DNA of 25,567 nt from a virus (taxonomy: Duplodnaviria; Heunggongvirae; Uroviricota; Caudoviricetes), in IMG/VR virus record IMGVR_UViG_2925914267_000006, positions 1 through 25,567 of that record; one strand, given 5' to 3'. The translations under genes were made by a program, and so were the position numbers. This document shows positions 277-21,899 of the stretch, in pieces. The notes below the pieces were generated by a model. That model was not told where the DNA came from and searched no databases. It was given only the letters and a program-made list of their open reading frames with translations. Position 1 is the stretch's first letter, and every line of letters starts with the position of its first letter.

Positions 277-698
277 CCTCGCGCATACAGCCGGGCAGTG
301 ACGTCATCGTCTGCGCGGAAATGGACGAACAGTGGGGATACGTCGGGGCTAAATCGCGCCAGCGCTGGCTGTTTTACGCGTATGACAGGCTCCGGAAGAC
401 GGTTGTTGCGCACGTATTCGGTGAACGCACTATGGCGACGCTGGGGCGTCTTATGAGCCTGCTGTCACCCTTTGACGTGGTGATATGGATGACGGATGGC
501 TGGCCGCTGTATGAATCCCGCCTGAAGGGAAAGCTGCACGTAATCAGCAAGCGATATACGCAGCGAATTGAGCGGCATAACCTGAATCTGAGGCAGCACC
601 TGGCACGGCTGGGACGGAAGTCGCTGTCGTTCTCAAAATCGGTGGAGCTGCATGACAAAGTCATCGGGCATTATCTGAACATAAAACACTATCAATAA
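195..698 (+). CDS. insB: IS1 InsB reading frame (made as an InsAB' fusion by -1 frameshift)
   Basis: The 167-aa frame overlapping the insA 3' end matches IS1 InsB as recalled. The coordinates are those of the ORF track; the true product arises by frameshifting from insA. Confidence 0.88.
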
Positions 699-757
699 GT
701 TGGAGTCATTACCCTTCAGACAATACAAATCAGCGACACTGAATACGGGGCAACCTC

Positions 758-952
758 ATGTCAACGAAGAACAGAACCCGCAGAACAACAACCCGCAACA
801 TCCGCTTTCCTAACCAAATGATTGAACAAATTAACATCGCTCTTGAGCAAAAAGGGTCCGGGAATTTCTCAGCCTGGGTCATTGAAGCCTGCCGTCGGAG
901 ACTAACGTCAGAAAAGAGAGCATATACATCAATTAAAAGTGATGAAGAATGA
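758..952 (+). CDS. ylcI: Small 64-aa protein, likely the DLP12 YlcI homolog, with a ribbon-helix-helix-like N-terminus
   Basis: The ORF sits immediately right of IS1; its size and position match DLP12 ylcI. The segment IRFPNQMIEQINIALEQKG...FSAWVIEACRRRL looks like an RHH DNA-binding fold. The symbol is assigned from recall with moderate certainty. Confidence 0.55.
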   Translation: MSTKNRTRRTTTRNIRFPNQMIEQINIALEQKGSGNFSAWVIEACRRRLTSEKRAYTSIKSDEE

Positions 953-1116
953 ACATCCCGCGTTCTTCCCTCCGAACAGGACGATATTGTAAATTCACTT
1001 AATTACGAGGGCATTGCAGTAATTGAGTTGCAGTTTTACCACTTTCCTGACAGTGACAGACTGCGTGTTGGCTCTGTCACAGGCTAAATAGTTTGAATGA
1101 TTAGCAGTTATGGTGA

Positions 1117-1323
1117 TCAGTCAACCACCAGGGAATAATCCTTCATATTATTATCGTGCTTCACCAACGCTGCCTCAATTGCTCTGAATGCTTCCAGAGA
1201 CACCTTATGTTCTATACATGCAATTACAACATCAGGGTAACTCATAGAAATGGTGCTATTAAGCATATTTTTTACACGAATCAGATCCACGGAGGGATCA
1301 TCAGCAGATTGTTCTTTATTCAT
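1117..1323 (-). CDS. ybcW: 68-aa hypothetical protein, likely YbcW homolog
   Basis: A 68-aa ORF divergent from ybcV; the size and neighbourhood match DLP12 ybcW. Confidence 0.5.
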
Positions 1324-1608
1324 TTTGTCGCTCCATGCGCTTGCTCTTCATCTAGCGGTTAAAATATTACTTCAAATCTTTCTGTATGAAGATTTGAGCA
1401 CGTTGGCCTTACATACATCTGTCGGTTGTATTTCCCTCCAGAATGCCAGCAGGACCGCACTTTGTTACGCAACCAATACTATTAAGTGAAAACATTCCTA
1501 ATATTTGACATAAATCATCAACAAAACACAAAGAGGTCAGACCAGATTGAAACGATAAAAACGATAATGCAAACTACGCGCCCTCGTATCACATGGAAGG
1601 TTTTACCA

Positions 1609-2019
1609 ATGGCTCAGGTTGCCATTTTTAAAGAAATATTCGATCAAGTGCGAAAAGATTTAAACTGTGAATTGTTTTATTCTGAACTAAAACGTCACAA
1701 CGTCTCACATTATATTTACTATCTAGCCACAGATAATATTCACATCGTGTTAGAAAACGATAACACTGTGTTAATAAAAGGACTTAAAAAGGTTGTAAAT
1801 GTTAAATTCTCAAGAAACACGCATCTTATAGAAACGTCCTATGATAGGTTGAAATCAAGAGAAATCACATTTCAGCAATACAGGGAAAATCTTGCTAAAG
1901 CAGGAGTTTTCCGATGGGTTACAAATATCCATGAACATAAAAGATATTACTATACCTTTGATAATTCATTACTATTTACTGAGAGCATTCAGAACACTAC
2001 ACAAATCTTTCCACGCTAA
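1609..2019 (+). CDS. ybcV: DUF1398-family protein YbcV (136 aa)
   Basis: The 177-aa ORF contains an internal start ([13 protein letters not shown]...) that yields exactly 136 aa, as in DLP12 YbcV; it lies next to bor. Confidence 0.65.
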
Positions 2020-2309
2020 ATCATAACGTCCGGTTTCTTCCGTGTCAGCACCGGGGCGTTGGCATAATGCAATACGTGTACGCGCTAAACCCTGTGTGCA
2101 TCGTTTTTAATTATTCCCGGACACTCCCGCAGAGAAGTTCCCCGTCAGGGCTGTGGACATAGTTAATCCGGGAATACAATGACGATTCATCGCACCTGAC
2201 ATACATTAATAAATATTAACAATATGAAATTTCAACTCATTGTTTAGGGTTTGTTTAATTTTCTACACATACGATTCTGCGAACTTCAAAAAGCATCGGG
2301 AATAACACC

Positions 2310-2603
2310 ATGAAAAAAATGCTACTCGCTACTGCGCTGGCCCTGCTTATTACAGGATGTGCTCAACAGACGTTTACTGTTCAAAACAAACCGGCAGCAG
2401 TAGCACCAAAGGAAACCATCACCCATCATTTCTTCGTTTCTGGAATTGGGCAGAAGAAAACTGTCGATGCAGCCAAAATTTGTGGCGGCGCAGAAAATGT
2501 TGTTAAAACAGAAACCCAGCAAACATTCGTAAATGGATTGCTCGGTTTTATTACTTTAGGCATTTATACTCCGCTGGAAGCGCGTGTGTATTGCTCACAA
2601 TAA
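2310..2603 (+). CDS. borD: Bor lipoprotein (serum-resistance lipoprotein of lambdoid phages)
   Basis: 97-aa protein with a lipoprotein signal peptide and lipobox (LLITGC); the sequence matches Bor as recalled, and it is convergent with Rz as in lambda. Confidence 0.9.
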   Translation: MKKMLLATALALLITGCAQQTFTVQNKPAAVAPKETITHHFFVSGIGQKKTVDAAKICGGAENVVKTETQQTFVNGLLGFITLGIYTPLEARVYCSQ

Positions 2604-2609
2604 TTGCAT

Positions 2610-2635
2610 GAGTTGCCCATCGATATGGGCAACTC
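2610..2635. terminator. Shared hairpin between the convergent bor and Rz genes (bidirectional terminator candidate)
   Basis: Perfect 10-bp inverted repeat gagttgccca / tgggcaactc with a 6-nt loop, lying between the bor stop and the Rz stop. Confidence 0.5.
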
Positions 2636-3111
2636 TATCTGCACTGCTCATTAATATACTTCTGGGTTCCTTCCAGTTGTTTTTGCATAGTGATCAGCCT
2701 CTCTCTGAGGGTGAAATAATCCCGTTCAGCGGTGTCTGCCAGTCGGGGGGAGGCTGCATTATCCACGCCGGAGGCGGTGGTGGCTTCACGCACTGACTGA
2801 CAGACTGCTTTGATGTGCAACCGACGACGACCAGCGGCAACATCATCACGCAGAGCATCATTTTCAGCTTTAGCATCAGCTAACTCCTTCGTGTATTTTG
2901 CATCGAGCGCAGCAACATCACGCTGACGCATCTGCATGTCAGTAATTGCCGCGTTCGCCAGCTTCAGTTCTCTGGCATTTTTGTCGCGCTGGGCTTTGTA
3001 GGTAATCGCGTTATCGCGGTAATGATTAACCGCCCATGAAAGGCAGACGATGACGCAGATAACCAGAGCATAAATAATCGCGGCGACTCTGCTCACTGAT
3101 CTATCCCCCAA
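2635..3111 (-). CDS. rzpD: Rz i-spanin (start uncertain, possibly GTG near 3096)
   Basis: Has an N-terminal transmembrane segment and a coiled-coil periplasmic domain, and matches RzpD as recalled. It overlaps the endolysin stop and contains Rz1 in another frame. Confidence 0.85.
2694..2876 (-). CDS. rzoD: Rz1 o-spanin lipoprotein embedded in Rz
   Basis: 60-aa ORF lying wholly inside Rz in another frame, with a lipobox (VVVGC) and a proline-rich stretch ([13 protein letters not shown]). Confidence 0.85.
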
Positions 3112-3626
3112 CAGGCTAATGCGCTTTCCTGGTCACGACGAATAACCTGTCCATAGCAGTTATTTGAACGTATGCGGCAATCGCGCCCACCATCTTTTAT
3201 CCACCAGCGAATCGCCTCGCATGCACCTTTACGATCACCGGCATTCAGCCGCTTATAAAACGTCGACGGGAAACACTTACCGGGGCCAATGTTATAGGGA
3301 CAAAATGACGCGATACCCGCTTTCTGTGGTTCGGTCAGTGGCACTTTAATATTGCGCTCCACCCATGCCAGCGCCTTATCCCGTTCAATGGCGTTAACCT
3401 GGTCGCATTTTTCCTTCGACAGTTTCATACCGGGAAAAACGGGTTTTCCATCCACCACCGTGGCACCCCGACAGATGGTCCAGATGCCGGAACCATCGCG
3501 GTATGCCGTTGTGTGGTTACCTTCTTTTTCATCCAGAAACTGGTCGAGAATATCAGGCGCAGGCGCACCGACGGCAATCAGTGCCAGAACGGCAGCCGAC
3601 AGGCCGTATCTGATTTTTGCGTTCAT
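3093..3626 (-). CDS. rrrD: SAR-endolysin (T4-type lysozyme fold with an N-terminal signal-anchor)
   Basis: The N-terminal hydrophobic SAR segment ([15 protein letters not shown]) is followed by an E-x8-D-x5-T catalytic pattern ([16 protein letters not shown]). It lies between the holin and Rz. Confidence 0.88.
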
Positions 3627-8391: not shown

Positions 8392-8554
8392 GATTCCTCC
8401 TTGCTGCCAGTCGCAACCATTTTTTATCAACCAGGCTAGCGGTATATCCGAGCAGTGTTGGTATTTCGGATGGCTTCAGCTCAGGTTTACGCTTACGACG
8501 ATTTGGTACTTTGTAGATGTGTCCGTTCATGACACGAATAAGCGGTGTAGCCAT
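8384..8554 (-). CDS. ninE: NinE-family protein
   Basis: 56 aa from MATPLIRVMNGHIYKVPNRRKRKPELKP...; a small basic protein resembling lambda NinE and placed as in the nin region. Confidence 0.7.
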   Translation of the reverse strand: MATPLIRVMNGHIYKVPNRRKRKPELKPSEIPTLLGYTASLVDKKWLRLAARRNHG

Positions 8555-9013
8555 TACGCCTCCTGCTTGTCGCGCAGCAGCTGAAACTCGCAGCTCTGTG
8601 GAATAGTCAGGTGGCAACCAATATTCATCGCCCAGGCTTCAACCTTACACAGGAAGACATACATCTCTCCGGTATCAAGATCGGAGGTATGGCGTAACGA
8701 CTGGATAGTGGTGATATCACCGGTTACGACATCAACCAGGTCTTTGGTTTCATAACCGAGATATGTGTGTTTGAGAGCATCTTTTACCCAAGCTGGAGTG
8801 GCGAACGTTTTACCCTTGCTGATGAGGTATTCACTGATTTCGCTGTACCACATGTGGCTGAGTGCATTCTGGGAAAGACTGCGTCTCTCGCGCCACGGTT
8901 TAAGCACCATGCGAAAGCATTTGCCGTCCTCCAGATAAGGCTGGATCTGCCGACCAATAGCGGTGAAGTTTGAGGTGTACTGGCAATAGCGGACACTACC
9001 ATTTGTTCTTTTT

Positions 9014-9832
9014 TTAAGCAGCCATCTGATGATATTTTTCCCTGAAGGCTGCCGGGGAGATATTCCCCAGACGAGAGTGACGACGCTGACGATTGTAGAA
9101 AATCTCAATGTATTCCCGTATTACTGAGATGGCTTCATCCCGGTTATTAAAACGATAGTGGCTCAGGCTCTCATTTTTCAGCGTTCCCCAGAAGCTTTCC
9201 ATCGGAGCGTTGTCGTAACAGTTACCTTTACGCGACATTGATGTTTTCAGACCAAACTGCTCCTGTATGACCCGGTAATCGTATGCGCAGTACTGTGAAC
9301 CTCGATCAGAGTGGTGGATTAGCCCGGCAGGTGGGCGCTGGCTCCTGAGCGCCATAAACAGGGCTTTACCTGTCAGCTCTTTTGTCATGCGCTCTCCCAT
9401 GGCGTAGCCGACAATTTCGCACGTATAAACATCTTTGATGCCAGCGAGGTACAACCATCCCTCCTGTGTGGCAACATACGTCAGGTCCGCCACCCAGACC
9501 TGATTTGGTGCTGTAGGAGCGAACGTCTGGTTCAGCAGATTTGGCGCAACTGGCAGATTGTGGTTCGAGTTCGTAGTCGCTCTGAACTTGCGTTTCTGCT
9601 TACAGCGTAGCCTTAGCTCCTTACGAAGACGTGCCAGTCGGTCACGACCAACGATGATGCCATTCTCTGCCAGCTCCGTCTGGAGCCGCCGGGTTCCATA
9701 TGTTTCGCGAGTGCGGATATGTGCCACCTTAATCTCCAGTTTTAGCCGCTCATCACTTTGTTTTCTGTCTGAGGGTTCATGCTGTACCCAGTTGTAATAA
9801 CCGCTCCTGGATACACCAAATACCTGACACAT
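9014..9832 (-). CDS. IS3-family transposase OrfB (DDE integrase core)
   Basis: 272-aa ORF with typical IS3-family OrfB motifs (WVADLTYV, HHSDRGSQY, YDNAPMESFWGTLK). Confidence 0.88.
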   Translation of the reverse strand: MCQVFGVSRSGYYNWVQHEPSDRKQSDERLKLEIKVAHIRTRETYGTRRLQTELAENGIIVGRDRLARLRKELRLRCKQKRKFRATTNSNHNLPVAPNLLNQTFAPTAPNQVWVADLTYVATQEGWLYLAGIKDVYTCEIVGYAMGERMTKELTGKALFMALRSQRPPAGLIHHSDRGSQYCAYDYRVIQEQFGLKTSMSRKGNCYDNAPMESFWGTLKNESLSHYRFNNRDEAISVIREYIEIFYNRQRRHSRLGNISPAAFREKYHQMAA

Positions 9833-9867
9833 CGCTTCAATGGGAAATTGTTGTCGCCATTGTTCGA

Positions 9868-10170
9868 TTAACGCGTATTTTTCAGCGACTCCTGTGCAAA
9901 ATACGCTGTTGCTTTTTTTAATATATCTCGCTCAAGGCGAGCTTCATTTAACGCCTTACGCAGTTGCAGAATTTCAGATTCCAGTTCAGCCACCGTGCGG
10001 GAACCAGGAGTACCGAGCCCTTTTCTGGCGGCGGTAACCCATTGCCCTAAAGTGCCTTCAGGAAGAGATAATCGGGAAGCGCCTTCACTGATCGAAAGTT
10101 GATTTTCAAGAACCGTTCTGACAGCTTCGGCTTTGAACTCTTTAGAGTAACGTTGGGTTTTTCTGCTCAT
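9868..10170 (-). CDS. IS3-family transposase OrfA (HTH plus leucine zipper)
   Basis: 100-aa ORF with an HTH and the C-terminal LERDILKKATAYFAQE zipper typical of IS3-family OrfA; an A AAA AAG slippery site lies near its 3' end. Confidence 0.85.
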   Translation of the reverse strand: MSRKTQRYSKEFKAEAVRTVLENQLSISEGASRLSLPEGTLGQWVTAARKGLGTPGSRTVAELESEILQLRKALNEARLERDILKKATAYFAQESLKNTR

Positions 10171-10309
10171 TATTAGCTCCTTCTGATGCCATTCTATTTC
10201 AGGAAGGAGTGTCCGTTAAACTCAGGCTACCTCAGTTACCGCGATGCAGTTTGATGCCATCTTGTGGGAAGTTCACGCTTCACCTCCGCAGAGATCAAAC
10301 GCTGGATGC

Positions 10310-10420
10310 AAAAAAACGCAGGTGCATTTCTGCATCTGTGGCAAGGCGAGGAGTTCAACTTGTGGTCGCATATAATTTCCCAATCATATGCGCAGAAGTC
10401 ACCGCAGGGTGTTCAGGCCA
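10310..10420 (-). repeat. Copy A of a roughly 110-bp repeat with two conserved boxes; contains a minus-strand rho-independent terminator
   Basis: Box 1 (aggtgcatttctgcatctgtg) and box 2 (gcgcagaagtcaccg..gttcaggc) are about 50 nt apart. On the minus strand box 1 forms a stem with a GAAA loop followed by a run of seven T, just upstream of the ninB-like start. Confidence 0.55.
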
Positions 10421-10446
10421 ACGGTGACGGTATTATTGCTTATTGA

Positions 10447-10698
10447 TTATGATTTTTCAATTTCATCAATAACCTTGTGATAGACAATACCAGAAAGGCC
10501 AACAGACAGTGGATGTTCATGAAATATTGGCTCATTTGCATAAACCCAATGCCCGACAAATTCTTCTGGGCTTGATATGTATAACTCACGAAGAAAATGG
10601 AGATCCCTCTCTACAACTAATTTCGTATCGTCCAAGAGCGCTGCATTTACGCTAGTTTTATGGCTGTGCATTAATTTACATTTGGTGAAGGACATCAT
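10447..10698 (-). CDS. Hypothetical 83-aa protein
   Basis: ORF downstream of the Bro-N-like gene on the same strand; no family recognised. Confidence 0.4.
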   Translation of the reverse strand: MMSFTKCKLMHSHKTSVNAALLDDTKLVVERDLHFLRELYISSPEEFVGHWVYANEPIFHEHPLSVGLSGIVYHKVIDEIEKS

Positions 10699-10757
10699 GG
10701 CAAAAGCTCCTTTTTCTTATGAATCCATATGTTAGCTAAATTGGAGAGACACAGTAG

Positions 10758-11375
10758 CTAACGTTGTTTAATAACATTCTGACGCAAATGTGGCAATTGT
10801 ACTCGACTCCACTTATCATCCTGCCACGGCTGGAATTTTACATGTGCCGTTTCTCTGGCGAGGATTGCTCGCGCTCTGGTGAGTATCTGGGGATATTCTT
10901 GCTCGATGGAAGTGAAGCGACCAGCTTCACGATGCTCCGCAACCTGAAGAAGAGGAGTAACGTTCTGGCAGGCGGTTAACATCGCATCCCCAGCTCGCCA
11001 TAACCAAGCAAGTGTGCAAAGTTCGTTATCAGTGAATTGTTTTGTGATCGGGGATTGTTGAACTTCTCGATCGAGAATATCCAGAACCCAGCGGCGGAAC
11101 TCTTTGGCTACAGGAGTTCGTGCAAACATGGCGATCAAATGAGCTCCGCGAAGGCTAAATACTCGAGACTCCTGCATTCCACGAGGGGTGGTCACTTTGA
11201 CCACCCTTGTCATCATATCTGTAAATTCATCTGAGTGACGAGAGTAAATGCGCTGAACTGCTTTATCGTCCGCATATTCCAGAGCTAAACCAACTTCAGT
11301 GGCAGTAAGCCAAATTCTGTTATTGTGGCAAATTGGGGTAAACGTCGTTTTGTGGAATGCTAATTGAGTAGTCAT
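10758..11375 (-). CDS. Bro-N / antirepressor-like DNA-binding protein
   Basis: The N-terminal pattern (FHKTTFTPICHNNRIWLTATEVGLALEYADDKAVQRIY...RVFSLRGAHLIAMFARTPVAKEFRRWVLDIL) resembles Bro-N domains of phage antirepressors. Family assignment is from recall only. Confidence 0.55.
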   Translation of the reverse strand: MTTQLAFHKTTFTPICHNNRIWLTATEVGLALEYADDKAVQRIYSRHSDEFTDMMTRVVKVTTPRGMQESRVFSLRGAHLIAMFARTPVAKEFRRWVLDILDREVQQSPITKQFTDNELCTLAWLWRAGDAMLTACQNVTPLLQVAEHREAGRFTSIEQEYPQILTRARAILARETAHVKFQPWQDDKWSRVQLPHLRQNVIKQR

Positions 11376-11530
11376 AGTTTCACCTCATCAGGTTAACCAT
11401 CACCACCAACGACGCCAATCGACTGGTGGTGAACTGTGCAAGGTTGGCGTAACCGGCTACTCAAATCCGGCGCTCCCGAAGAAGCCCTCACACAGCCCAC
11501 CATAATTTGGGCGTAGCCGTGCTTAGCGCA

Positions 11531-11552
11531 TAAAAAAACCGCTTAACGCGGT
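11531..11552 (-). terminator. Weak minus-strand terminator candidate upstream of the Bro-N-like gene
   Basis: On the minus strand ccgc-gttaa-gcgg is followed by a run of seven T; the stem is short. Confidence 0.3.
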
Positions 11553-11638
11553 ATGCGTTGAGTAGTATTCCGGGACGCCAATCCCGTGTGCCGATTTTGC
11601 GGCAACGCACAGAATATATCCCCAGATAAATCATGTCG

Positions 11639-11728
11639 TCAACCCCAGTAAATGGACACCATGATGATCACAGCCATAGCTGCTACAACAGTTACAACTA
11701 CCTCAGGCCAAAACATAACGATTTCCAT
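11639..11728 (-). CDS. Possible 29-aa hydrophobic peptide (MEIVMFWPEVVVTVVAAMAVIIMVSIYWG)
   Basis: Single predicted transmembrane helix with an AGGTGA-like ribosome-binding site close to the ATG. It is the 3' end of an 82-aa GTG-initiated ORF and may not be coding. Confidence 0.3.
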   Translation of the reverse strand: MEIVMFWPEVVVTVVAAMAVIIMVSIYWG

Positions 11729-11794
11729 ATCACCTTTAGCCGCCAGACGAATAGAGACTCCCAATTCTGGCTGTCGAAGTAAAACACCGAATGT

Positions 11795-11902
11795 AAAAAA
11801 TCGTAGGTGCATTTCTGCATCTGTGAATGGAGAAGATAGGTTGGATTGTATGTGCGCATAAACGTCCCCGTTTAGCGCAGAAGTCACCGGAGTTGTTCAG
11901 GC
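11795..11902 (-). repeat. Copy B of the same two-box repeat with a minus-strand terminator
   Basis: Box 1 and box 2 are conserved with copy A at the same ~50-nt spacing while the intervening sequence differs. The minus-strand stem is followed by a run of six T. Confidence 0.55.
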
Positions 11903-11986
11903 TCCGGCTTATTAATATTGCCTACTTACAATTAATTTTTCAACTGTTAGAAACTTATAATTAGCTGTCTCTTTGTAACTATCAAT

Positions 11987-12217
11987 TTAATTATTTTTCT
12001 TTAACTTGAAATTTCTTCCCATTGCTAGTGTTCTTCGAAGATTCGAATCATAAGCTGGTTGATAATATCTATCATAAAAATCCTTAATTGTCTGATGGTA
12101 AGTATCCAGCATCAAACCATAAAACCCCATGACCTTAAGATAATCCACCAAGGGAAATAAATAATCATCAGTCTGAACATCAGTATCAACATTATTTTTT
12201 TTGTTTTTTAACTTCAA
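11987..12217 (-). CDS. 76-aa ORF overlapping the 3' end of the STAND NTPase gene; possibly its frameshifted C-terminal extension
   Basis: TTG-initiated ORF in another frame relative to the NTPase; the two frames cross within an 8-nt A tract (T8 on the plus strand at about 12191-12198). AT-rich by eye. Confidence 0.35.
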   Translation of the reverse strand: MKLKNKKNNVDTDVQTDDYLFPLVDYLKVMGFYGLMLDTYHQTIKDFYDRYYQPAYDSNLRRTLAMGRNFKLKKNN

Positions 12218-13919
12218 ATTTGTATAAGTTTAACTCACCCTTATCCATCGTGCATGAAAAAAGGTCGTCAAAAATCAAATCAATTTTTGTCATAGGAACT
12301 CGTTCTTTTCCAGACATTATAGGTAGAATATCAATACCTAAGAGCGAACCTAATACAAAGTCGTAATGAAGCGAAATCACTGAGTCATTCGATGTCGAGT
12401 TGCCTTTGATAAATACTCTACTTAGTGCCGAGTCAAAAACATTCTCAACTCTCTCTCTCGTCATGTTTGCGACATCTACAACCCCCATATCACGAGAAGC
12501 TTTTATTGTGATTTCATCTATAAATGCTTTGGAATCTAGTGAATGTAAAAACAACATGAAGTTATCTAACTGTTCAGAGCATTTAATAGCCACCATAAGA
12601 TTTTCGTATATATCTTTTTTATACTCAATCGGTAAATTTGCTACCGCAAAAGCAGCATAAAATTCTTGCACTGATTTATGCAGAAAAACATACCTATTAT
12701 TTCCCTCAGGTTGGATAAGGCAAGTTATCTCAATAAGATCATCTATAAAGTTTGATGCATCTTCTTTAAGATAACCTTCTGTTTCAATAGCATCTTCAGC
12801 ATATCTAAGCAACTCCTCTCCCCAAAACTCAAATTTCTCCTCAATCAGTGCGTTATAGCAAATAGCTGAAAAACACAATTTAGCTTTTTCACCAATAATG
12901 TTTGATTTTTTCTCGCGCGTATATACTTTTATTTTATCATGCCTTGCATATAAGGTGTCAAAGAGGCTTCGATAAAACTCTATTATATTATTTGGAATAT
13001 CATTCATATAAGGATAACAATAATACAAAAGAGTAACTAAAATTGGATTGCAAATAGTTCCCTCAAGTTCTTCTTTATCACATAGTAAATCCGCCAAGAC
13101 TTTAAACGAGGCATCACTACTTGAGAATCTGTCATTTTTCGATAAAGAATGAAGAATACAAATCTTATCAGAAATATTTAGCTTATCTATAAAAATATTA
13201 TACACATCAGTAGTATAACATATATCTGTATTTGGTCTCGTTGTTGCGATAATTGGTGTGTTAAAATGATAATGAATGTTTTTTATTTCATTCATCATCA
13301 TAGTTCGCTCTTCATGTTTAACCTCATCAAATCCATCCAACATTAAAACGACTCTTTGGGATTGCAGTAATATTTTCAAGCTATCCTCTGAACACCCCAC
13401 ACCAAATGAATTAAGAATGTCTGCCAGATAAGCAATAATATTTGCATTCTTCACCCTTCTTAATTCAATAAAAAAAGGTATCCGTTCTGATTTTTTTATT
13501 TCCTCGCTAAACAACTTGCGTAAAATAGTACTTTTCCCTTGCCCCGCTATACCGACTATATTTACAATACCATGAAATGGTAAAGTGACCCCATCTTTTA
13601 TAACGACCTTGTCTTTATTAGATGCCACCTCAACAGTTAACGGATAATAAATATCATCTAAAAAAATATCATAATCAGCGTTGTGCAAAGTTCTCATTTT
13701 CAGAGATGGTAGCACATGCTTTCTTAAATAATTTTCTCTCCCGAGGGGATCATTTAATTGTTCGAGTATAACCTTGCCTTCATCTAGGTCCCTAGCCCAA
13801 GGTTTAGAGAGCAATACTTCTGTTATTTTTTCCGCAGCTTTTCCTACTGTGCTATTAATAATAGTCGCAAGAAACTCATCCATTTTTTCACCACATTCAT
13901 TAACCAATACGTGGTGCAT
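12192..13919 (-). CDS. STAND-class P-loop NTPase (NACHT-like), candidate antiphage or abortive-infection protein
   Basis: Walker A (GIAGQGKST), Walker B of NACHT type (VVLMLDGFDEV) and a TTRP motif (IIATTRP) at NACHT-like spacing. Both the gene and its flanks look AT-rich by eye. The start is uncertain: ATG at 13919 or 13883, with the track's TTG at 13940. Confidence 0.7.
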   Translation of the reverse strand: MHHVLVNECGEKMDEFLATIINSTVGKAAEKITEVLLSKPWARDLDEGKVILEQLNDPLGRENYLRKHVLPSLKMRTLHNADYDIFLDDIYYPLTVEVASNKDKVVIKDGVTLPFHGIVNIVGIAGQGKSTILRKLFSEEIKKSERIPFFIELRRVKNANIIAYLADILNSFGVGCSEDSLKILLQSQRVVLMLDGFDEVKHEERTMMMNEIKNIHYHFNTPIIATTRPNTDICYTTDVYNIFIDKLNISDKICILHSLSKNDRFSSSDASFKVLADLLCDKEELEGTICNPILVTLLYYCYPYMNDIPNNIIEFYRSLFDTLYARHDKIKVYTREKKSNIIGEKAKLCFSAICYNALIEEKFEFWGEELLRYAEDAIETEGYLKEDASNFIDDLIEITCLIQPEGNNRYVFLHKSVQEFYAAFAVANLPIEYKKDIYENLMVAIKCSEQLDNFMLFLHSLDSKAFIDEITIKASRDMGVVDVANMTRERVENVFDSALSRVFIKGNSTSNDSVISLHYDFVLGSLLGIDILPIMSGKERVPMTKIDLIFDDLFSCTMDKGELNLYKFEVKKQKK

Positions 13920-14271
13920 TCTTACAAGACTCAGTAACAATTGTCAATCATAGGTTTTCGCATGATTGCAAAACGCCATAAACAATTGTAGCACCATAAT
14001 TTTAAACACTATATAATATACAACCTTCCTACAAGCATTCAGTACATCGCTTAATCACAGGGCTTGAATATATAGTAAGGAATCGATATTAATCACCTCA
14101 TCTACTTTAAACATCTTACACACCTATAATTTATAATAGTCAACACGAGGTCATCATATTAAACATGCAATTACAAACATTCATTTTTATATAAATTTTC
14201 ATGATTTAACCGTAGAGCGACGGTAATAAATTTCATATACAAGGATTTAAGCTCCCATACGTTTTCTATTA

Positions 14272-14451
14272 TTAAAAATAACATACCGTTCGCCAGACCT
14301 TACCATCAATGACCAGGATTCCTGCCCGCGCCATTTTTGCCGCAGCCTGATTTATGCTGGTTAATGTCACACCTGTTGTCGCAGCAACGTCCGGCGCACA
14401 GAAGCTCTTGTGCGTCCCCAGGTAATGAATAATTGCTTCTTTTCCCGTCAT
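14272..14451 (-). pseudogene. ren: Truncated ren (59 codons, lambda Ren is 96 aa)
   Basis: Hand translation gives MTGKEAIIHYLGTHKSFCAPDVAATTGVTLTSINQAAAKMARAGILVIDGKVWRTVCYF*, matching the N-terminal part of lambda Ren. The ATG overlaps the P stop, and the frame ends where the AT-rich island begins. Confidence 0.75.
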
Positions 14452-15149
14452 ACACTGGCTCCTTTCAGTCCGAACTTAGCTTTGATTTCTGCAATCTTCG
14501 CCAGAGCCTGTGCACGATTTAGAGGTCTACCGCCCATGACAGGAAGTTGTTTTACTGGTTCAGGTATAACCTCACCACGGTTAATTCTCGCAGTCATATG
14601 GGCAAGTTCATCGGCAGCCTTGCGCCGTAATTCCGAGTCAGTCAACGCATTAGCCCGCATGTTCTGATACAGGTTGGTAACCAGCCAGTAGTGCGCGTTT
14701 GATTTCCACGGATAAGACTCTGCGTCCGGATACAGGCCACGCTTCCGGCAATACTCGTAAACCATATCAACCAGCTCGCTGGCGTTTGGCAGTCCGGCGG
14801 TAACGGATGCTTCTTCCCGGCACCAGGCGACAAACTGCCCGGGTGATGGCAGGAATGGTCGATTCTGCCGACGGGCTACGCGCATTCCTGCGTTAACCTG
14901 TTCCATTGTGGTGATCCCGTTTTCCCGGAAAGCCAGAACCCACTGGCGGCGGATTTCGTTCAGTTCGTTCTGGTCCCGGTTAGCCAGGCTCGCCGGGAAA
15001 GTTGCCAGTAACTGGCTGAACACACCGTTGATGATCCGCGCTACCTGCTGTACCTGCGGCTTTTCGTCGTACTGTTCCGGCATGTTGTTGGCGATCCGGC
15101 GCATCTGCTCACGGTCAAAGTTAACCATCTGTGCGGCGATGTTTTTCAT
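14448..15149 (-). CDS. P: Lambda P replication protein (DnaB helicase loader)
   Basis: 233-aa protein nearly identical to lambda P as recalled (MKNIAAQMVNFDREQMRRIANNMPEQYDEKPQVQQVA...). Confidence 0.93.
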   Translation of the reverse strand: MKNIAAQMVNFDREQMRRIANNMPEQYDEKPQVQQVARIINGVFSQLLATFPASLANRDQNELNEIRRQWVLAFRENGITTMEQVNAGMRVARRQNRPFLPSPGQFVAWCREEASVTAGLPNASELVDMVYEYCRKRGLYPDAESYPWKSNAHYWLVTNLYQNMRANALTDSELRRKAADELAHMTARINRGEVIPEPVKQLPVMGGRPLNRAQALAKIAEIKAKFGLKGASV

Positions 15150-16075
15150 AAATCCACCCCATAAATCCAGTCAGTGTTTGTCAGGTCGAGTTTTGATTTT
15201 CCGGCTGTCACGCCAGCCTGTTGCTTGTTACGGTTGATTTCGAGTTGGGTCCACTTGTCGCGGAGTTTGGCCGGACTTAGCACGTTACCGGACCAGAAGT
15301 TGTCCTGGCATGCCCAGCGGAACAGCACGCACATGTCGCGGTGGTTACGTCCGTCACGTTCACGCATCAGGCGGATATCGTTAGCCCACCCTGCAAAATT
15401 CGGTTTTCTGGCTGATGGCGCGATGGTCTTCACCATGTCAAACATCCACTCTGCGGCGGTCAGGTCTTCTGCTGTCCCCCACCTGCTGCCGCTCTGAATT
15501 GCAGCATCTGGTTTCTCCACAGGAAGATCGTTTTCTGGTTGGTCAGAGGATTCGCCAGAATTCTCGGACGAAAAAGGTTTTATATTGTCTTTTGTTAGTT
15601 TGTCTTTTGTGTTTACCTGATTCGGGTAAACGCCTTTACCTGATTTGGGTAAACTTTTCTTACCTGATTCAGGTAAATTTACCTCTTTCAGGTAAACTTT
15701 ATTTTTCTTACCTGATTCGGGTAATGTTGACCATTCACTGACCACATTATTAATGCCGATATTCCGCCCGCTCTGAATAAGAATCCCACGCTTTACCAGA
15801 ACGCTTTTTGCAGCAGAACACTTGTGCGGCAATATCCCGGTCAACTCGGAAAGTTGCTCGTTGCTCACCCAATCCAGTTTTTTATTAAAGCCATATGTTT
15901 TGCGCATGACAGCCAGGAAGACCAGAAGCTGGTGCTGTGTTAATCCGGCCAGCATCACAGCTTCCAGCAACTCATTTGCAATGCGCGTATAACCATCATC
16001 GAGATCTGCCACGCGCGGCTCCTTTTGTGCCGCATCCGGCACTGGAAAATTGAATATCTCAGCAGTGTTTGCCAT
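15146..16075 (-). CDS. O: Lambda O-family replication initiator
   Basis: The N-terminus (ADLDDGYTRIANELLEA...) resembles lambda O and iterons lie inside the coding sequence. The start is placed at the internal ATG (MANTAEIF...), which has a GGGAGG ribosome-binding site. Confidence 0.8.
   Translation of the reverse strand: MANTAEIFNFPVPDAAQKEPRVADLDDGYTRIANELLEAVMLAGLTQHQLLVFLAVMRKTYGFNKKLDWVSNEQLSELTGILPHKCSAAKSVLVKRGILIQSGRNIGINNVVSEWSTLPESGKKNKVYLKEVNLPESGKKSLPKSGKGVYPNQVNTKDKLTKDNIKPFSSENSGESSDQPENDLPVEKPDAAIQSGSRWGTAEDLTAAEWMFDMVKTIAPSARKPNFAGWANDIRLMRERDGRNHRDMCVLFRWACQDNFWSGNVLSPAKLRDKWTQLEINRNKQQAGVTAGKSKLDLTNTDWIYGVDL
15614..15726. repeat. Replication origin iterons: five copies of an ~18-bp repeat inside the O gene
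   Basis: tacctgattcgggtaaac (15614), tacctgatttgggtaaac (15637), tacctgattcaggtaaat (15661), tacctctttcaggtaaac (15680) and tacctgattcgggtaatg (15709); each is internally palindromic (tacc..ggta). An AT-rich stretch adjoins at about 15557-15612. Confidence 0.8.
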
Positions 16076-16161
16076 AATTCCTCCCGCAATGAGTGTGTTA
16101 CGATTTGCACCTGAAAGTCGGTTCTGTTCCAGCAGACCGGCTTTCGCCATTTCTGAACCTG

Positions 16162-16701
16162 TCATATCGCCCCCAGCATGGTAGTAACCATCGCCATCAA
16201 TGGACCAGCCAGATCTGGGTCCACACGAAACATCGACACAATACCTTCACTAATTTCCTTCAGTTTCTGGTGGCGTGGTGCGTTGAGAATGACAGCCTGT
16301 TTTGCCTCACTGAGTTCCTTTTCCATTTCAGCCAACCTAGCCATGAAGCTATCCTGCTCAACCAGGTAACCGCGATATTCCAGCGGTAGTACCGCCAGAA
16401 TTGCCGGGGTCAGTTCACGCACGTTATTTCGGTATTTTTCAGAATCGAATTTGTTATCGAGGAAGCGGAACAGCTTCTGGCGTGCACGGCTGACATCATC
16501 AGGGAAATCGATGGTGCCGCCGCCCTGCTCCCGATACTCATTCACAATGAGTGTGGCAACGACATCCTGGTTATCTACAGCCGACCAGGCGCGGACGGCA
16601 TCACGGATTTTTTCGTGGCCTGGCACCTGTTTTGTTTGAGAACGATTTATCACCGCAGTCGGGCTAAATCCGCTAGTCTGTTGGTATGTAAGTGGTTGCA
16701 T
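16162..16701 (-). CDS. YdaT-like protein in the cII position
   Basis: 179-aa ORF between the cro-like gene and O. Segments (IRDAVRAW, QKLFRFLDNK, LTPAILAVLP) resemble the Rac prophage YdaT as recalled. Confidence 0.5.
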   Translation of the reverse strand: MQPLTYQQTSGFSPTAVINRSQTKQVPGHEKIRDAVRAWSAVDNQDVVATLIVNEYREQGGGTIDFPDDVSRARQKLFRFLDNKFDSEKYRNNVRELTPAILAVLPLEYRGYLVEQDSFMARLAEMEKELSEAKQAVILNAPRHQKLKEISEGIVSMFRVDPDLAGPLMAMVTTMLGAI

Positions 16702-16770
16702 AATTGACTCCTTTAGTTTGAATTGACTGTTAAGTTGATTGCTTATTGTTAAAGAGCGTGAAATGGAAAT

Positions 16771-17001
16771 TTAAGCTGCGTTCTTTTCGGTGTGTGGAAA
16801 CAACTTCGGAAGATCCGGGCGAATCTGGTATGCCTTCACTACTCCACCAGTAGCCGTAACAATGCTGCCGACATGTTCAGGGGATACCTTTGCTTTGTTG
16901 TGAAGCCACTTATAGACGGCCTGCTGTGAAACTTCGCAAGCAGCGCCCAGTTTCTTTTGTGAACCAACGATATTGATCGCTGTTTTGATAGCTGGGTTCA
17001 T
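16771..17001 (-). CDS. Cro/YdaS-like HTH regulator in the cro position
   Basis: 76-aa ORF divergent from the repressor gene, with an HTH (GSQKKLGAACEVSQQAVYKWL) and a GGAGG ribosome-binding site. Confidence 0.7.
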   Translation of the reverse strand: MNPAIKTAINIVGSQKKLGAACEVSQQAVYKWLHNKAKVSPEHVGSIVTATGGVVKAYQIRPDLPKLFPHTEKNAA

Positions 17002-17105
17002 AACAACCTCCGTGGTTAATTTGAATCAAGATTAAAACTATGGTTGTTTTTAGTCAACAACCATTTTCGTTTGATGGAATAAAACCTTGGTTGTACATTT
17101 GGACT
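17002..17105. promoter_or_regulatory. Divergent immunity control region (OR / pR / pRM equivalent) with repeated AAAAC-N3-GGTTGT operator-like sites
   Basis: Intergenic region between the divergent cro-like and cI genes. It contains the 17-mers aaaactatggttgtttt (17035-17051) and aaaaccttggttgtaca (17081-17097) and the inverted repeat atggttgtt-N7-aacaaccat (17040-17064). Confidence 0.6.
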
Positions 17106-17795
17106 ATGAAAACAACACTCTCAGAAAGACTTAAAGAAGCCAGATTAGCGCGAGGCCTTACACAAAAGGCGCTTGGGGATTTGGTCGGGGTTAGCCAGGC
17201 TGCTATTCAGAAAATCGAAACAGGGAAAGCTAATCAAACAACTAAAATCGTGGAGATCGCGAACGCTTTGGGTGTGCGCGCAGAATGGTTATCTTCTGGC
17301 GTTGGAAATATGTCAGACAGTACAGTGCAACCAATACAATCAACTGTCAGCCATTCCAAATACTTCAAGATTGACGTTCTTGATATAGAAGTCAGTGCTG
17401 GGCCGGGAGTCATCAACCGTGAGTTTGTAGAAGTTCTACGCTCGGTTGAGTACTCGTTTGACGATGCTCGTCACATGTTCGATGGTAGGAAGGCGGAAAA
17501 TATCCGCATCATTAACGTGCGTGGTGACAGCATGTCAGGAACGATCGAACCAGGTGATCTGCTGTTCGTTGATATCACGGTTAAATCTTTCGACGGTGAT
17601 GGTATCTATGCGTTTCTGTACGACGACACAGCCCATGTAAAGCGCCTGCAAATGATGAAGGATAAGCTGCTGGTTATCTCTGATAACAAGAGCTACTCAC
17701 CGTGGGACCCGATCGAGAAAGACGAGATGAACCGGGTGTTCATCTTCGGTAAGGTTATTGGGAGCATGCCCCAGACGTACAGGAAACATGGATAA
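17106..17795 (+). CDS. cI: cI-type prophage repressor (HTH plus S24 LexA-like autopeptidase domain)
   Basis: N-terminal HTH (LTQKALGDLVGVSQAAIQKIE), Ala-Gly cleavage site (EVSAGPG), catalytic Ser (GDSM) and Lys (VKRL). The start is taken at the internal ATG (MKTTLSERLKEARL). Confidence 0.85.
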   Translation: MKTTLSERLKEARLARGLTQKALGDLVGVSQAAIQKIETGKANQTTKIVEIANALGVRAEWLSSGVGNMSDSTVQPIQSTVSHSKYFKIDVLDIEVSAGPGVINREFVEVLRSVEYSFDDARHMFDGRKAENIRIINVRGDSMSGTIEPGDLLFVDITVKSFDGDGIYAFLYDDTAHVKRLQMMKDKLLVISDNKSYSPWDPIEKDEMNRVFIFGKVIGSMPQTYRKHG

Positions 17796-17861: not shown

Positions 17862-18725
17862 ATGGATTGTGACGCTTTACAGGATATAAAAATCTCTCTT
17901 AGGTATGACGGAAAAGATGCTTTAAATCATGAAATAGATTTGAACTGCCTAGGAGAATCCCTAAAGGGTTTTTCTAAAGTTCTCTCAACAGCAGCTTCTT
18001 TCTCTGTTACACAAAAATATAGTAAATACATTAATTATCAGGAAGTTAAGGTTTACGCACGCGAAGCAAAAGCTAACTGCTTTACTCTTGAAGCAGTTCT
18101 TAACTTCGCCACTCAGAACCAGTTGTTCTCGGGGATCGCCGCAACTATACTTGGCGCAATACTACAATATATTTTTGCGAGAAATTCTAACAAGAAAGAT
18201 GAAATGAAAGCTTTGCAGCAGTCACTTGAAAAGGCCATAGAGGCACTAGGAAACAAGGATGCTGGAACCATTGATAAGTTGATCTCTTTGATTGACCGAA
18301 TGGCTGTAGAGCTTCGCCCCTCTGTAAGGCAGGCAGTATCACCTATTGGTAATACTTGCGATCAGATAAGTGTTGCAACAAATGTTGACGGCTGCCTTCT
18401 AAAAGTTAACGAGAGAGATAAAGCTGAAATTGATAGGCTTGATGATGATGAAGTTCTCGGTCTTCGTGAGTATCGTGCTTTTCTTACAGAATTTGATGCA
18501 CAAAATATGACAGCTAAAATAATTTTAGATGGTGATGACTCAAAAAAGAGAATCACTGCTGAAATTAGCGATCCAGCTGCAGGAAAGAAGAATAACCCGT
18601 ATATTAGAGCTCTTAGTGCATATATATCAACCAAAGGTGATCCATCTGCAGTATTCACTATAACCGCAAAGGCTACTGTTAAAAAAGGCCAGATAAACAG
18701 GTTATTTATTGTAGATGCGAAATGA
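17862..18725 (+). CDS. Unrecognised 287-aa protein downstream of the repressor on the same strand (rex position), candidate exclusion gene
   Basis: Follows cI after 66 bp and is closed by a strong terminator. It has one central hydrophobic segment ([18 protein letters not shown]), no resemblance to lambda RexA/RexB, and looks AT-rich by eye. Confidence 0.6.
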
Positions 18726-19786: not shown

Positions 19787-20572
19787 ATGAGTACAGCACT
19801 CGCAACGCTGGCAGGGAAGCTGGCTGAACGTGTCGGCATGGATTCTGTCGACCCACTGGAACTGATCACCACTCTTCGCCAGACGGCATTTAAAGGTGAT
19901 GCCAGCGATGCGCAGTTCATCGCATTGTTGATCGTCGCCAACCAGTACGGCCTTAATCCGTGGACGAAAGAAATTTACGCCTTCCCTGATAAGCAGAACG
20001 GCATCGTTCCGGTGGTGGGCGTTGATGGCTGGTCCCGCATCATCAATGAAAACCAGCAGTTTGATGGCATGGACTTTGAGCAGGACAATGAATCCTGTAC
20101 ATGCCGGATTTACCGCAAAGACCGTAATCATCCGATCTGCGTTACCGAGTGGATGGATGAATGCCGCCGCGAACCATTCAAAACCCGCGAAGGCAGAGAA
20201 ATCACCGGACCGTGGCAGTCGCATCCCAAACGGATGTTACGGCATAAAGCCATGATTCAGTGTGCCCGTCTGGCCTTCGGATTTGCGGGTATCTATGACA
20301 AGGATGAAGCCGAGCGCATTGTCGAAAATACCGCATACACTGCAGAACGTCAGCCGGAACGCGACATCACTCCGGTTAACGATGAAACCATGCAGGAGAT
20401 TAACACTCTGCTGATCGCCCTGGATAAAACATGGGATGACGACTTATTGCCGCTCTGTTCCCAGATATTTCGCCGCGACATTCGCGCATCGTCAGAACTG
20501 ACACAAGCCGAAGCAGTGAAAGCTCTTGGATTCCTGAAACAGAAAGCCACTGAGCAGAAGGTGGCAGCATGA
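19787..20572 (+). CDS. bet: Bet (Red-beta single-strand annealing protein)
   Basis: 261-aa protein nearly identical to lambda Bet as recalled (MSTALATLAGKLAERVGMDSVDPLELITTLRQTAFKGDASDAQFIALL...). Confidence 0.93.
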   Translation: MSTALATLAGKLAERVGMDSVDPLELITTLRQTAFKGDASDAQFIALLIVANQYGLNPWTKEIYAFPDKQNGIVPVVGVDGWSRIINENQQFDGMDFEQDNESCTCRIYRKDRNHPICVTEWMDECRREPFKTREGREITGPWQSHPKRMLRHKAMIQCARLAFGFAGIYDKDEAERIVENTAYTAERQPERDITPVNDETMQEINTLLIALDKTWDDDLLPLCSQIFRRDIRASSELTQAEAVKALGFLKQKATEQKVAA

Positions 20573-20685: not shown

Positions 20686-21012
20686 ATGACTAAAAATACT
20701 CGTTTTTCCCCCGAAGTCCGTCAGCGGGCGATTCGTATGGTTCTGGAAAGTCAGGATGAATATGACTCACAGTGGGCGGCAATTTGTTCCATTGCCCCAA
20801 AGATTGGCTGTACGCCGGAGACTCTGCGTGTCTGGGTTCGCCAGCATGAGCGGGATACCGGGGGCGGTGATGGTGGGCTCACCAGTGCTGAACGTCAGCG
20901 TCTGAAAGAGCTGGAACGTGAAAATCGTGAACTGCGCCGCAGTAACGATATCCTTCGCCAGGCTTCCGCTTATTTTGCGAAGGCGGAGTTCGACCGCCTC
21001 TGGAAAAAATGA
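20686..21012 (+). CDS. IS629 OrfA
   Basis: 108-aa protein [42 protein letters not shown]... matching IS629-group OrfA as recalled. Confidence 0.88.
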
Positions 21013-21899
21013 TGCCACTGCTGGATAAGCTGCGTGAGCAGTACGGGGTCGGACCGGTATGCAGCGAACTGCATATTGCCCCGTCAACGTATTACCATTG
21101 TCAGCAACAGCGACATCATCCGGATAAACGCAGTGCCCGTGCGCAGCACGACGACTGGCTGAAGAGAGAGATACAGCGCGTATACGATGAAAATCATCAG
21201 GTGTACGGTGTGCGTAAAGTCTGGCGTCAGTTGTTACGGGAAGGAATCAGGGTAGCCAGATGTACAGTGGCGCGCCTCATGGCGGTTATGGGACTTGCCG
21301 GTGTTCTCCGGGGTAAAAAGGTCCGCACTACCGTCAGCCGGAAAGCCGTTGCCGCAGGCGACCGCGTAAACCGTCAGTTTGTGGCAGAACGACCTGACCA
21401 GCTGTGGGTGGCTGATTTTACTTACGTCAGCACATGGCAGGGCTTCGTCTATGTGGCGTTTATCATTGATGTGTTTGCCGGATACATCGTGGGGTGGCGG
21501 GTCTCATCGTCTATGGAAACGACATTCGTGCTGGATGCGCTGGAGCAGGCGTTGTGGGCCCGTCGTCCGTCTGGCACCATCCATCACAGCGATAAAGGCT
21601 CTCAGTATGTGTCACTGGCCTATACGGAGCGACTAAAAGAAGCCGGATTACTGGCATCAACAGGGAGTACAGGCGACTCGTATGACAACGCGATGGCTGA
21701 GAGCATCAATGGTCTTTACAAAGCGGAGGTAATACACCGTAAGAGCTGGAAAAACCGTGCAGAAGTGGAACTGGCCACACTAACGTGGGTGGACTGGTAT
21801 AACAATCGACGATTGCTGGGAAGGCTGGGCCATACTCCTCCGGCAGAAGCAGAAAAAGCTTATTATGCTTCCATCGGAAACGATGATCTGGCAGCCTGA
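21009..21899 (+). CDS. IS629 OrfB (DDE transposase core)
   Basis: 296-aa protein with IS3-family OrfB motifs ([31 protein letters not shown]). Confidence 0.88.

Follow-up and report, generated by a model that had tools for sequence, protein, structure and literature searches.

We have found that a lambdoid prophage carries a broken copy of the phage gene ren, joined within codons 56-58 to an AT-rich cassette whose only long open reading frame (ORF) is a predicted NACHT NTPase gene. The prophage was studied in a 25,567-nucleotide stretch of viral DNA, which we refer to as the window; it runs across the window in reverse orientation, with the genes of the lambda rightward set on the minus strand (Table 1). 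We favor, at a probability of roughly 0.8, an explanation in which the remnant of ren (ren') is a dead 5' stump left by a single ancestral joint, the NACHT gene is the cargo of a moron-like cassette, the combination has spread by homologous recombination, and the prophage studied here has since begun to decay. The junction itself is an ordinary lambdoid mosaic junction, and both the truncated ren and the NACHT gene are already present in RefSeq annotation.

Table 1. Features of the prophage discussed in the text, in window coordinates.
Feature	Coordinates	Strand	Evidence or remark
cI-like S24 repressor	17040-17795	+	
cro-like gene	16771-17001		lambda rightward set
YdaT-domain gene, cII position	16162-16701		lambda rightward set
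O	15146-16165		lambda rightward set
P, lambda-type replication gene, 233 aa	14448-15149	-	Pfam Phage_lambda_P, E = 2e-62; DNA 93-96% identical to lambda and seven relatives up to 14279; with ren', left homology arm of the cassette in lambda orientation
ren' remnant ORF, 59 codons	14272-14451	-	BLASTP, codon comparison, PGAP, PHROG
Junction interval	14278-14285	.	comparison with intact ren and GC change-point
AT-rich cassette leader, 395 nt, GC 0.30	13884-14278	-	
Sigma-70-like promoter candidate	13918-13947	-	consensus scan only
NACHT NTPase gene, predicted bNACHT01/11-like	11987-13883	-	Pfam, model, alignment of relatives
A8 run inside NACHT gene	12195-12202	-	A7 in all five compared relatives
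AT-rich 3' tail of cassette, GC 0.25	11907-11986	-	
Conserved linker, ~130 bp	11776-11906	-	similarity to relatives resumes here
isrK-like RNA	11532-11604	-	Rfam, gathering score
C4 antisense RNA	11422-11507	-	Rfam, gathering score
Bro-N/P22AR_C Ant-like gene	10758-11375	-	Pfam and PHROG
83-aa ORF	10447-10698		between Ant-like gene and ybcN/ninB
Second linker copy, 74% identical	10297-10418		immediately upstream of ybcN/ninB
ybcN/ninB homologue (NinB family), split by IS600	10235-10276 + 8554-8970 (span 8554-10276)	-	
IS600, 1264 bp	8971-10234		within ybcN/ninB, about codon 15; 3-bp duplication AAC

The ren' ORF begins, as ren does in lambda, with an ATG that overlaps the stop codon of P as ATGA (14448-14451), and its product is identical to lambda Ren at 51 of 58 residues without gaps (88%; BLASTP, E = 2e-38). 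The DNA of P and of the 5' part of ren is 92-96% identical to that of lambda and seven relatives up to position 14279, with lambda itself at about 92%, and similarity to all eight of these phages and prophages, each of which has an intact ren, breaks at the same point, 14279/14278 (the set includes lambda, E. coli LR-50, UID2309220033 and 95-3322, and the phages PhiR30_1 and 4A7). At the break the intact alleles read ACG GTG TAT TAC CGG TTC and the window reads ACG GTA TGT TAT TTT TAA TAA TAG. Comparison codon by codon thus gives a Ren-derived part of 56 residues for certain and of 58 at most: homology is sure through codon 56 (GTA here, GTG in the intact alleles) and possible through codon 58, with 14285 the last base surely held in common with intact alleles and 14278 the last that could be. 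After Ren-homologous residues 1-56 (or 58) the product ends in C-Y-F and the stops TAA TAA TAG; codon 59 (TTT) and the three consecutive stops are foreign, belonging to the AT-rich island. The sequence-only reading, made before this analysis, had ren matching lambda for 59 residues; it was right that the ORF has 59 codons, but the homology covers 56-58 residues. In family searches ren' matches phrog_142 (Ren-like, over residues 1-58 only, E = 8e-21) and phrog_7054. Neither Pfam nor NCBIfam has a Ren model, and PGAP labels the identical ORF in E. coli genomes 'protein ren, incomplete, missing C-terminus'.

Base composition changes at the same place. GC content is 0.54 in P and 0.51 in ren', as compared with 0.30 in the 395-nt leader of the cassette and 0.33 in the NACHT gene, and the 200 nt on either side of the junction differ sharply (0.505 versus 0.275; chi-square p = 4e-6). 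The steepest step anywhere within 9000-17000 lies at 14285, where the GC content of 250-nt windows goes from 0.50 to 0.30. It had been proposed from the letters alone that the ren frame stops as AT-rich DNA starts, that this DNA continues into the NTPase gene, and that an acquired cassette has its right-hand edge, in window coordinates, at this point. The homology break and the compositional break, taken together, bear out all three proposals.

Intact Ren proteins are 95-100 aa long and are conserved to within a few residues of their end. At least 80% of Ren is covered in 165 of the 174 phage records with a Ren match and in 2472 of the 2813 complete E. coli genomes that bear ren, and from these counts we take the full-length protein to be ancestral and the form in the window to be derived. 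The conserved C-terminal segment of Ren, RFATREEREGK...FKECRQSAAMKRVL, is missing from the entire window; alignment with lambda ren recovered no full-length Ren-like frame, and a permissive tblastn search for Ren residues 57-96 found them nowhere in the window (best E = 1.2). A simple insertion that displaced the 3' end of ren is ruled out by this last result, since without a ren 3' part in the window the event must have been one of replacement or loss; the earlier claim that the 3' part of ren had been replaced therefore holds, at a cost to the gene of some 40 codons.

At the far end of the cassette, similarity to NACHT-free relatives resumes at 11906/11907 in four independent genomes (L003, L004, L006 and L008), which sets the limits of the cassette at 11907-14278, a span of 2372 bp with a GC content of 0.32. 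The linker that follows opens with the stem-loop CCGGAG-N9-CTCCGG (11887-11907), which scores as a terminator only on the opposite strand. Other prophages carry the linker in one or both of its two positions, at the end of the cassette and upstream of ybcN/ninB. Only strain ANT, which lacks the Ant module, has the cassette joined to ybcN via the linker, an arrangement which shows that the linker copies recombine. What separates the two copies in the window, an isrK/C4/Ant-like module and the 83-aa ORF, is common to intact-ren relatives (L003, L004 and L008) at 93-95% identity, and judged by these alignments the module is a neighbor of the cassette and not a component of it. This is where the sequence-only reading went too far: it had the insertion replacing whatever lay between ren and ninB, but the cassette ends at 11907, and the presence in intact-ren relatives of the module between that point and ninB means that the replaced interval was overstated.

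The NACHT gene is the only long ORF between these limits. No ORF in the leader (13884-14278) exceeds 37 aa, and no Rfam family matches it; the leader is ~99% conserved among the eight E. coli genomes that bear the cassette and is not conserved at the DNA level in the orthologous cassettes of other genera. The top site of a consensus scan is a promoter candidate 35 nt upstream of the NACHT start codon, with TTGACA, an 18-nt spacer and a TG-extended AAGAAT (10/12 plus TG, by consensus match only). On the coding strand, the stretches that follow ren' and the NACHT gene both lack a predicted intrinsic terminator. Neither end of the cassette has a recombinase gene, a transposase, terminal inverted repeats or a target-site duplication, features whose absence points to a single illegitimate joint, made once.

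The stretch between ren and the linker is variable. In lambda only 73 bp separate ren from ninB. The slot holds one small ORF in strain 95-3322, an acyltransferase and a lipoprotein in PhiR30_1, and, in LR-50, an 84-aa ORF together with a 472-aa gene on the other strand that has a PADLOC HEC-07 match. Phage 4A7 has EmrE and YbcK after ren, and matches the window through the P/ren arm only, not through the linker. The slot from ren to the linker is thus a site of interchangeable cargo in E. coli prophages, other candidate defense genes included.

The product of the NACHT gene is 631 aa in relatives and is split in the window by a +1 frameshift. Five E. coli genomes with the same DNA have the protein annotated (98.9-99.8% identity); it is 631 aa long in four of the five, and the version in L002 is split by a strain-specific extra base. 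Annotation of the relatives places the start at the ATG at 13883, not at the TTG at 13940 of the mechanically called ORF, and DNA similarity to NACHT orthologues from other genera begins at 13883-13893, matching the ATG. The ORF has a Pfam NACHT domain above the gathering score (E = 3e-11), with a Walker A motif, GIAGQGKST (GQGKST), and a Walker B motif, VVLMLDGFDEV (LMLDGFDE). About 200 homologues of 620-640 aa occur in Enterobacterales, Vibrio, Aeromonas and Pseudoalteromonas. Pfam SNaCT1 is matched by 20 of the 53 aligned family members (best E = 1e-88); the protein in the window is itself below the SNaCT1 threshold and aligns from end to end with one SNaCT1-bearing homologue, so that its assignment to SNaCT is by transitivity through homologues. 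No repeat domains (LRR, TPR or WD40) were found in the protein, and no Pfam domain was found N-terminal of residue ~105, where the model has helices only. An AlphaFold2 (AF2) model built on the homologue alignment has a pLDDT of 87.8, and its best PDB matches in Foldseek are the NACHT modules of NLRC4, NOD2 and NLRP3 (E about 1e-12); searches of the protein against PADLOC v2.0.0, NCBIfam and PDB sequences gave no match.

As predicted from these features, the architecture of the protein is that of the bNACHT01/bNACHT11 clade: the N-terminal extension is short and helical, a NACHT module follows, and the C-terminal sensor domain is short and SNaCT-like. bNACHT01 and bNACHT11 (clade 14, NACHT plus SNaCT) are bacterial NLR-related anti-phage proteins (Kibby et al., 10.1101/2022.07.19.500537). 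In bNACHT11, the SNaCT domain is the part that binds phage proteins, of which several are known, the assembled form is a heptamer, the short N-terminal extension triggers cell death, and the C-terminal tail helps the oligomer to assemble (10.1101/2024.12.17.629029). By analogy with these two proteins we infer that the gene in the window is an anti-phage gene, which would make it a new predicted member of a known defense family. Its full-length product might sense phage proteins through its C-terminal domain, oligomerize and kill the infected cell, and death of the infected cell would protect the lysogen population.

In the prophage studied here this function has probably been lost. The window has a run of eight A residues at 12195-12202 where all five compared relatives have seven. 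This one extra A, whether it arose by mutation or as a sequencing error in the homopolymer, puts translation out of frame past residue 562, with a stop at 12192-12194. The gene is thereby divided into an ORF of 563 of the 631 aa (12192-13883) and a remainder ORF of 76 aa (11987-12217), and the last 69 residues are removed; exact look-up found no record of the frameshifted product anywhere. The lost segment corresponds to a strand and a 37-residue helix that are modeled with high confidence, and this, together with the role of the bNACHT11 tail in assembly, suggests that the truncated protein is probably inactive. Other carriers have had the gene disrupted independently, by an added T (strain 2014C-4135), by an IS5-type insertion, and by an IS1 insertion with deletion. 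The prophage in the window is decaying elsewhere as well: in addition to the NACHT frameshift and the IS600 copy in ybcN/ninB, a second element, of the IS3 family, lies just downstream of bet, where relatives have exo. In this prophage, then, Ren no longer functions, and the NACHT protein probably does not either.

Of 5426 complete E. coli genomes, 8 carry the same junction, with ren called an incomplete pseudogene by PGAP in each one examined, and the exact 59-aa ren' product is indexed in 689 blocks of a large assembly collection. In 23 contigs that were read, the NACHT gene lay next to ren' in all 10 distinct places among the matches listed, and at least four different gene contents of the immunity region were found upstream of ren' among those 10 places. 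Such constant pairing behind differing immunity regions argues for one ancestral event followed by spread through homologous recombination. In one prophage, L011, 14 differences from the window fall within ren' (14314-14410) and only ~9 in the 2.4-kb cassette, a pattern that points to a crossover inside ren'. NACHT orthologues of 62-66% identity occupy the equivalent post-replication slot of lambdoid prophages in other Enterobacterales; these too are AT-rich, and one lies beside FRG, protein-kinase and KAP-NTPase genes. A blastn search in 'distant' mode did not find the cassette in 50,697 phage records or 72,556 plasmid records, and a literature search by RefSeq accessions and by ren, ninB and defense-hotspot themes found no paper describing the ren'/NACHT junction.

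We propose that one ancestral non-homologous joint linked a foreign AT-rich cassette of 2.37 kb to ren at a point within codons 56-58, and that the joint removed ren codons ~57-96 (some 40) along with whatever the variable slot between ren and the linker had previously held; a single replacement and an insertion followed by a deletion cannot be told apart. The cassette would be a moron-like single-gene unit, made up of the 395-nt leader with its promoter candidate and the gene for the 631-aa NACHT protein. The block from P through ren' and the NACHT gene to the linker would then have moved among lambdoid prophages by homologous recombination, with the conserved P/ren 5' DNA and the linker serving as its two exchange arms.

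It is possible, though unlikely, that ren' is no stump at all but a functional short protein, consisting of a winged-helix-like N-terminal domain of Ren and kept by selection, for instance because it acts as a small regulator or gives partial protection against Rex. All 59 codons remain open in the window, as they do in most carriers; in strain ANT, however, the ORF has acquired an extra nonsense codon at position 54, and the verdict of PGAP is that of an incomplete pseudogene. There is a second short form of Ren, of 57 aa (ending WRTFV and a stop), which occurs in 460 blocks and goes by the NCBI name 'MarR family transcriptional regulator', and PHROGs holds a 57-residue family, phrog_7054, as well as a 162-aa MarR-like family that has residues 1-59 alone in common with Ren. 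Yet the 57-aa form comes from a diverged ren allele whose codon 58 is a nonsense codon followed by a recognizable remnant of the ren 3' part, and an 84-aa read-through version exists; the short forms, moreover, have substitutions at positions that are invariant or nearly so in the full-length protein (for example G50R and N34K/T). A low-confidence AF2 model of Ren has N-terminal helices at residues 3-13, 19-26 and 30-42 and is least confident over residues 54-60, as would be expected of a domain boundary at that point, but the model of the full-length protein is poor (pLDDT 60.5) and unsuited to a fold search. Against a self-sufficient N-terminal domain, every intact Ren shows strong conservation of residues 57-92, implying that they are needed, and prophage copies of ren have been disrupted in many ways, by frameshifts, by an IS3 insertion and by nin5-type deletion, which suggests that the gene is dispensable in prophages. 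The diversity in the ren 5' part could have been imported by recombination with intact alleles, with L011 as an example. A stronger form of the same idea, in which the first ~56 residues of Ren are a winged-helix module kept on purpose, doubling as a homology arm for the exchange of defense cassettes at the ren-nin slot and leaving functional short forms, we regard as improbable; if it were true, both widespread short forms would be functional alleles and not debris. We note that the two short forms keep different cargo, the 59-aa form being found with the NACHT gene and the 57-aa form with VasI/TagO-like cargo. We also note that ren' has remained an open frame in most carriers, which counts against our main explanation in that an open frame is in itself no proof of a pseudogene.

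The way in which the cassette arrived can be read differently too. Three breaks fall within ~10 nt of one another, namely the NACHT junction (after codon 56), the point past codon 55 where the 57-aa form diverges, and an IS3-type insertion that follows codon 57 in one assembly, and could be taken to mean that codons 55-58 of ren are an insertion hotspot at which the cassette arrived by site-specific recombination or transposition. We consider this very unlikely. The cassette has no recombinase or transposase, no terminal inverted repeats and no target duplication, and on these grounds, with no end-specific repeats found, a transposon-like cassette was ruled out. A hotspot at codons 55-59 proved a weak candidate when the individual forms were followed up: the 57-aa form is a nonsense-bearing diverged allele with no cargo junction, a 62-aa form results from the IS3-type insertion, and an apparent 64-aa form ends in Nextera adapter contamination. 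Many other end points are seen among truncated and frameshifted Rens, and the forms compared had been picked by length, which biases them toward clustering. That the truncation of ren is an assembly or sequencing artefact of the window deserves next to no credence: the nearby A8 run makes single-base homopolymer errors conceivable, but nothing of the kind applies to the junction itself, which recurs in identical form in eight E. coli genomes finished independently of one another, as well as in hundreds of further assemblies.

Ren protects infecting or induced lambda from Rex exclusion and is a self-protection gene of the phage rather than a host defense. The sequence-only reading had suggested that at this site one defense-related function was swapped for another. 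As a statement about gene content in the ancestor of the module this is fair; as a functional trade it is only loosely supported, because rexA and rexB were both absent from the window (the rex position is occupied by a DUF7946/DUF7947 gene), Ren is self-protective, and the NACHT protein is a predicted defense protein that is frameshifted here and on which PADLOC is silent. The Rex proteins themselves (RexA/B) are reported to make two-hybrid contacts with Ren and with O (10.1101/2021.04.19.439022). The junction will not surprise specialists, since in lambdoid phages such mosaic junctions are the norm. What the analysis adds is exact limits (11907-14278) for a single-gene, NLR-like cassette, together with the arms on which it would travel between lambdoid prophages, and these may be of use when prophages are mined for defense genes or when an intact allele of this bNACHT sub-family is selected for experiments.

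Lambda Ren (96 aa; phrog_142, 'Ren-like exclusion protein') is encoded at the same site, directly after P and with the same ATGA overlap, and differs from ren' in retaining residues ~57-96, which all intact homologues conserve. The nin5 deletion, found in laboratory lambda and in DE3 derivatives, likewise takes away the 3' end of ren, and records of this type cover Ren only to residue 74-77; nin5 is, however, a laboratory deletion into the nin region that brought in no cargo, and its breakpoint is at codon ~74 rather than 56-58. Phages of the nin5 type are viable, from which it follows that a truncated ren is tolerated.

The predicted NACHT protein resembles bNACHT01 and bNACHT11 in being a single protein of ~630 aa with a short, effector-free N-terminal extension, Walker motifs and a non-repeat C-terminal domain. 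The likeness is one of architecture and runs through homologues, and the version in the window has no SNaCT1 hit above threshold, has no PADLOC v2 hit and is frameshifted at residue 562. The idea of phage morons, like that of lambdoid mosaic junctions, goes back to Hendrix and Juhala. The cassette departs from a moron in that one of its boundaries lies inside a gene, ren, and not between genes, and the textbook moron anatomy of promoter, gene and terminator is only partly seen, as no coding-strand terminator is predicted. Nevertheless, it is moron-like in being present or absent in otherwise collinear prophages, in its deviant composition, in the promoter-like site upstream of its gene, and in having a linker boundary that is common to many cargo variants.

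The NACHT NTPase gene of the cassette is disrupted in the window, where an A-run within it (12195-12202, minus strand) reads A8 as compared with A7 in five relatives, and the product accordingly ends at a stop after 563 aa instead of reaching 631 aa. No record of this exact 563-aa product was found anywhere. We note that the same gene has been broken independently in other compared loci, by an additional T in E. coli 2014C-4135 (L002), by an IS5-type insertion in L022 and by IS1 plus a deletion in L025. Because separate carriers have broken the same gene independently, it is possible that the NACHT gene is costly.

The interval between ren and the linker holds other candidate defence cargo in relatives. 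The slot of E. coli LR-50 (L004 4806-6224), in which ren is intact, carries on the opposite strand a 472-aa gene that matches HEC-07 in PADLOC (E = 1e-9), which suggests that the slot is often home to candidate defence genes. In Enterobacter cloacae (L015/L016 841-7905) a NACHT orthologue that is 62% identical follows the P gene, accompanied by an integrase fragment and by genes for FRG-domain, Ser/Thr-kinase and KAP-NTPase proteins, so that this prophage slot holds a small cluster of defence-like character. The first base of the linker, which starts with a CCGGAG/CTCCGG stem-loop, is the exact end point of many different cargos. The linker is present twice in the window, with one copy upstream of the Ant module and the other upstream of ybcN, and in strain ANT the Ant module has been lost through recombination between linker copies.

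Coordinates of annotated features (window positions unless a locus is named)
Feature	Position	Strand	Remarks
NACHT gene parts (ORFs)	12192-13883 and 11987-12217	minus
Linker copies	11776-11906 and 10297-10418; compared locus L005, 7698-7881		~130 bp
isrK	11532-11604	minus	Rfam match at gathering score
C4 antisense RNA	11422-11507	minus	Rfam match at gathering score
Bro-N/P22AR_C Ant-like gene	10758-11375	minus
IS600	8971-10234		1264 bp; matches annotated copies of IS600 at 99.9% identity
Second IS3-family element	20686-21899		programmed-frameshift pseudoknot (ALIL, 20967-21083)
DUF7946/DUF7947 protein	17862-18725	plus	287 aa

Short forms of Ren also arise in other ways. A second common form of 57 aa, ending WRTFV* and found in 460 blocks (loci L028-L035, 5001-5815), is a ren allele that has diverged and carries a stop at codon 58; its 5' part shares 93% protein identity with ren' of the window, and the two part ways no more than 3 nt from the ren' junction. 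Beyond the stop lie a ren 3' remnant and then cargo unlike that of the window, namely a 164-aa VasI/TagO-like protein and ORFs of 108 aa and 181 aa. A 62-aa form (L036 4150-4324) is explained by an IS3-type element inserted at codon 57 of ren. The protein collection also contains a 64-aa 'Ren' cluster (L037 1344-1411), which was rejected as a database artefact, its end being Nextera adapter sequence (CTGTCTCTTATACACATCT).

Insertion sequences have also entered the window. IS600 lies in the ybcN/ninB homologue at about codon 15, flanked by a 3-bp duplication (8968-8970 and 10235-10237), and the second IS3-family element lies just 3' of bet (19787-20572), at the position of the exonuclease gene in relatives, and probably disrupts exo. 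Directly 3' of the cI-like repressor, the position of rexAB in λ, is the DUF7946/DUF7947 gene, whose product weakly matches the candidate system PDC-S42 in PADLOC (E = 1.5e-4); no RexA or RexB homologue was found in the window. Lastly, the isrK and C4 antisense RNA matches sit directly upstream of the Ant-like gene, a layout that resembles the RNA-controlled antirepressor modules of the Gifsy-1 isrK or P1 c4-ant type.
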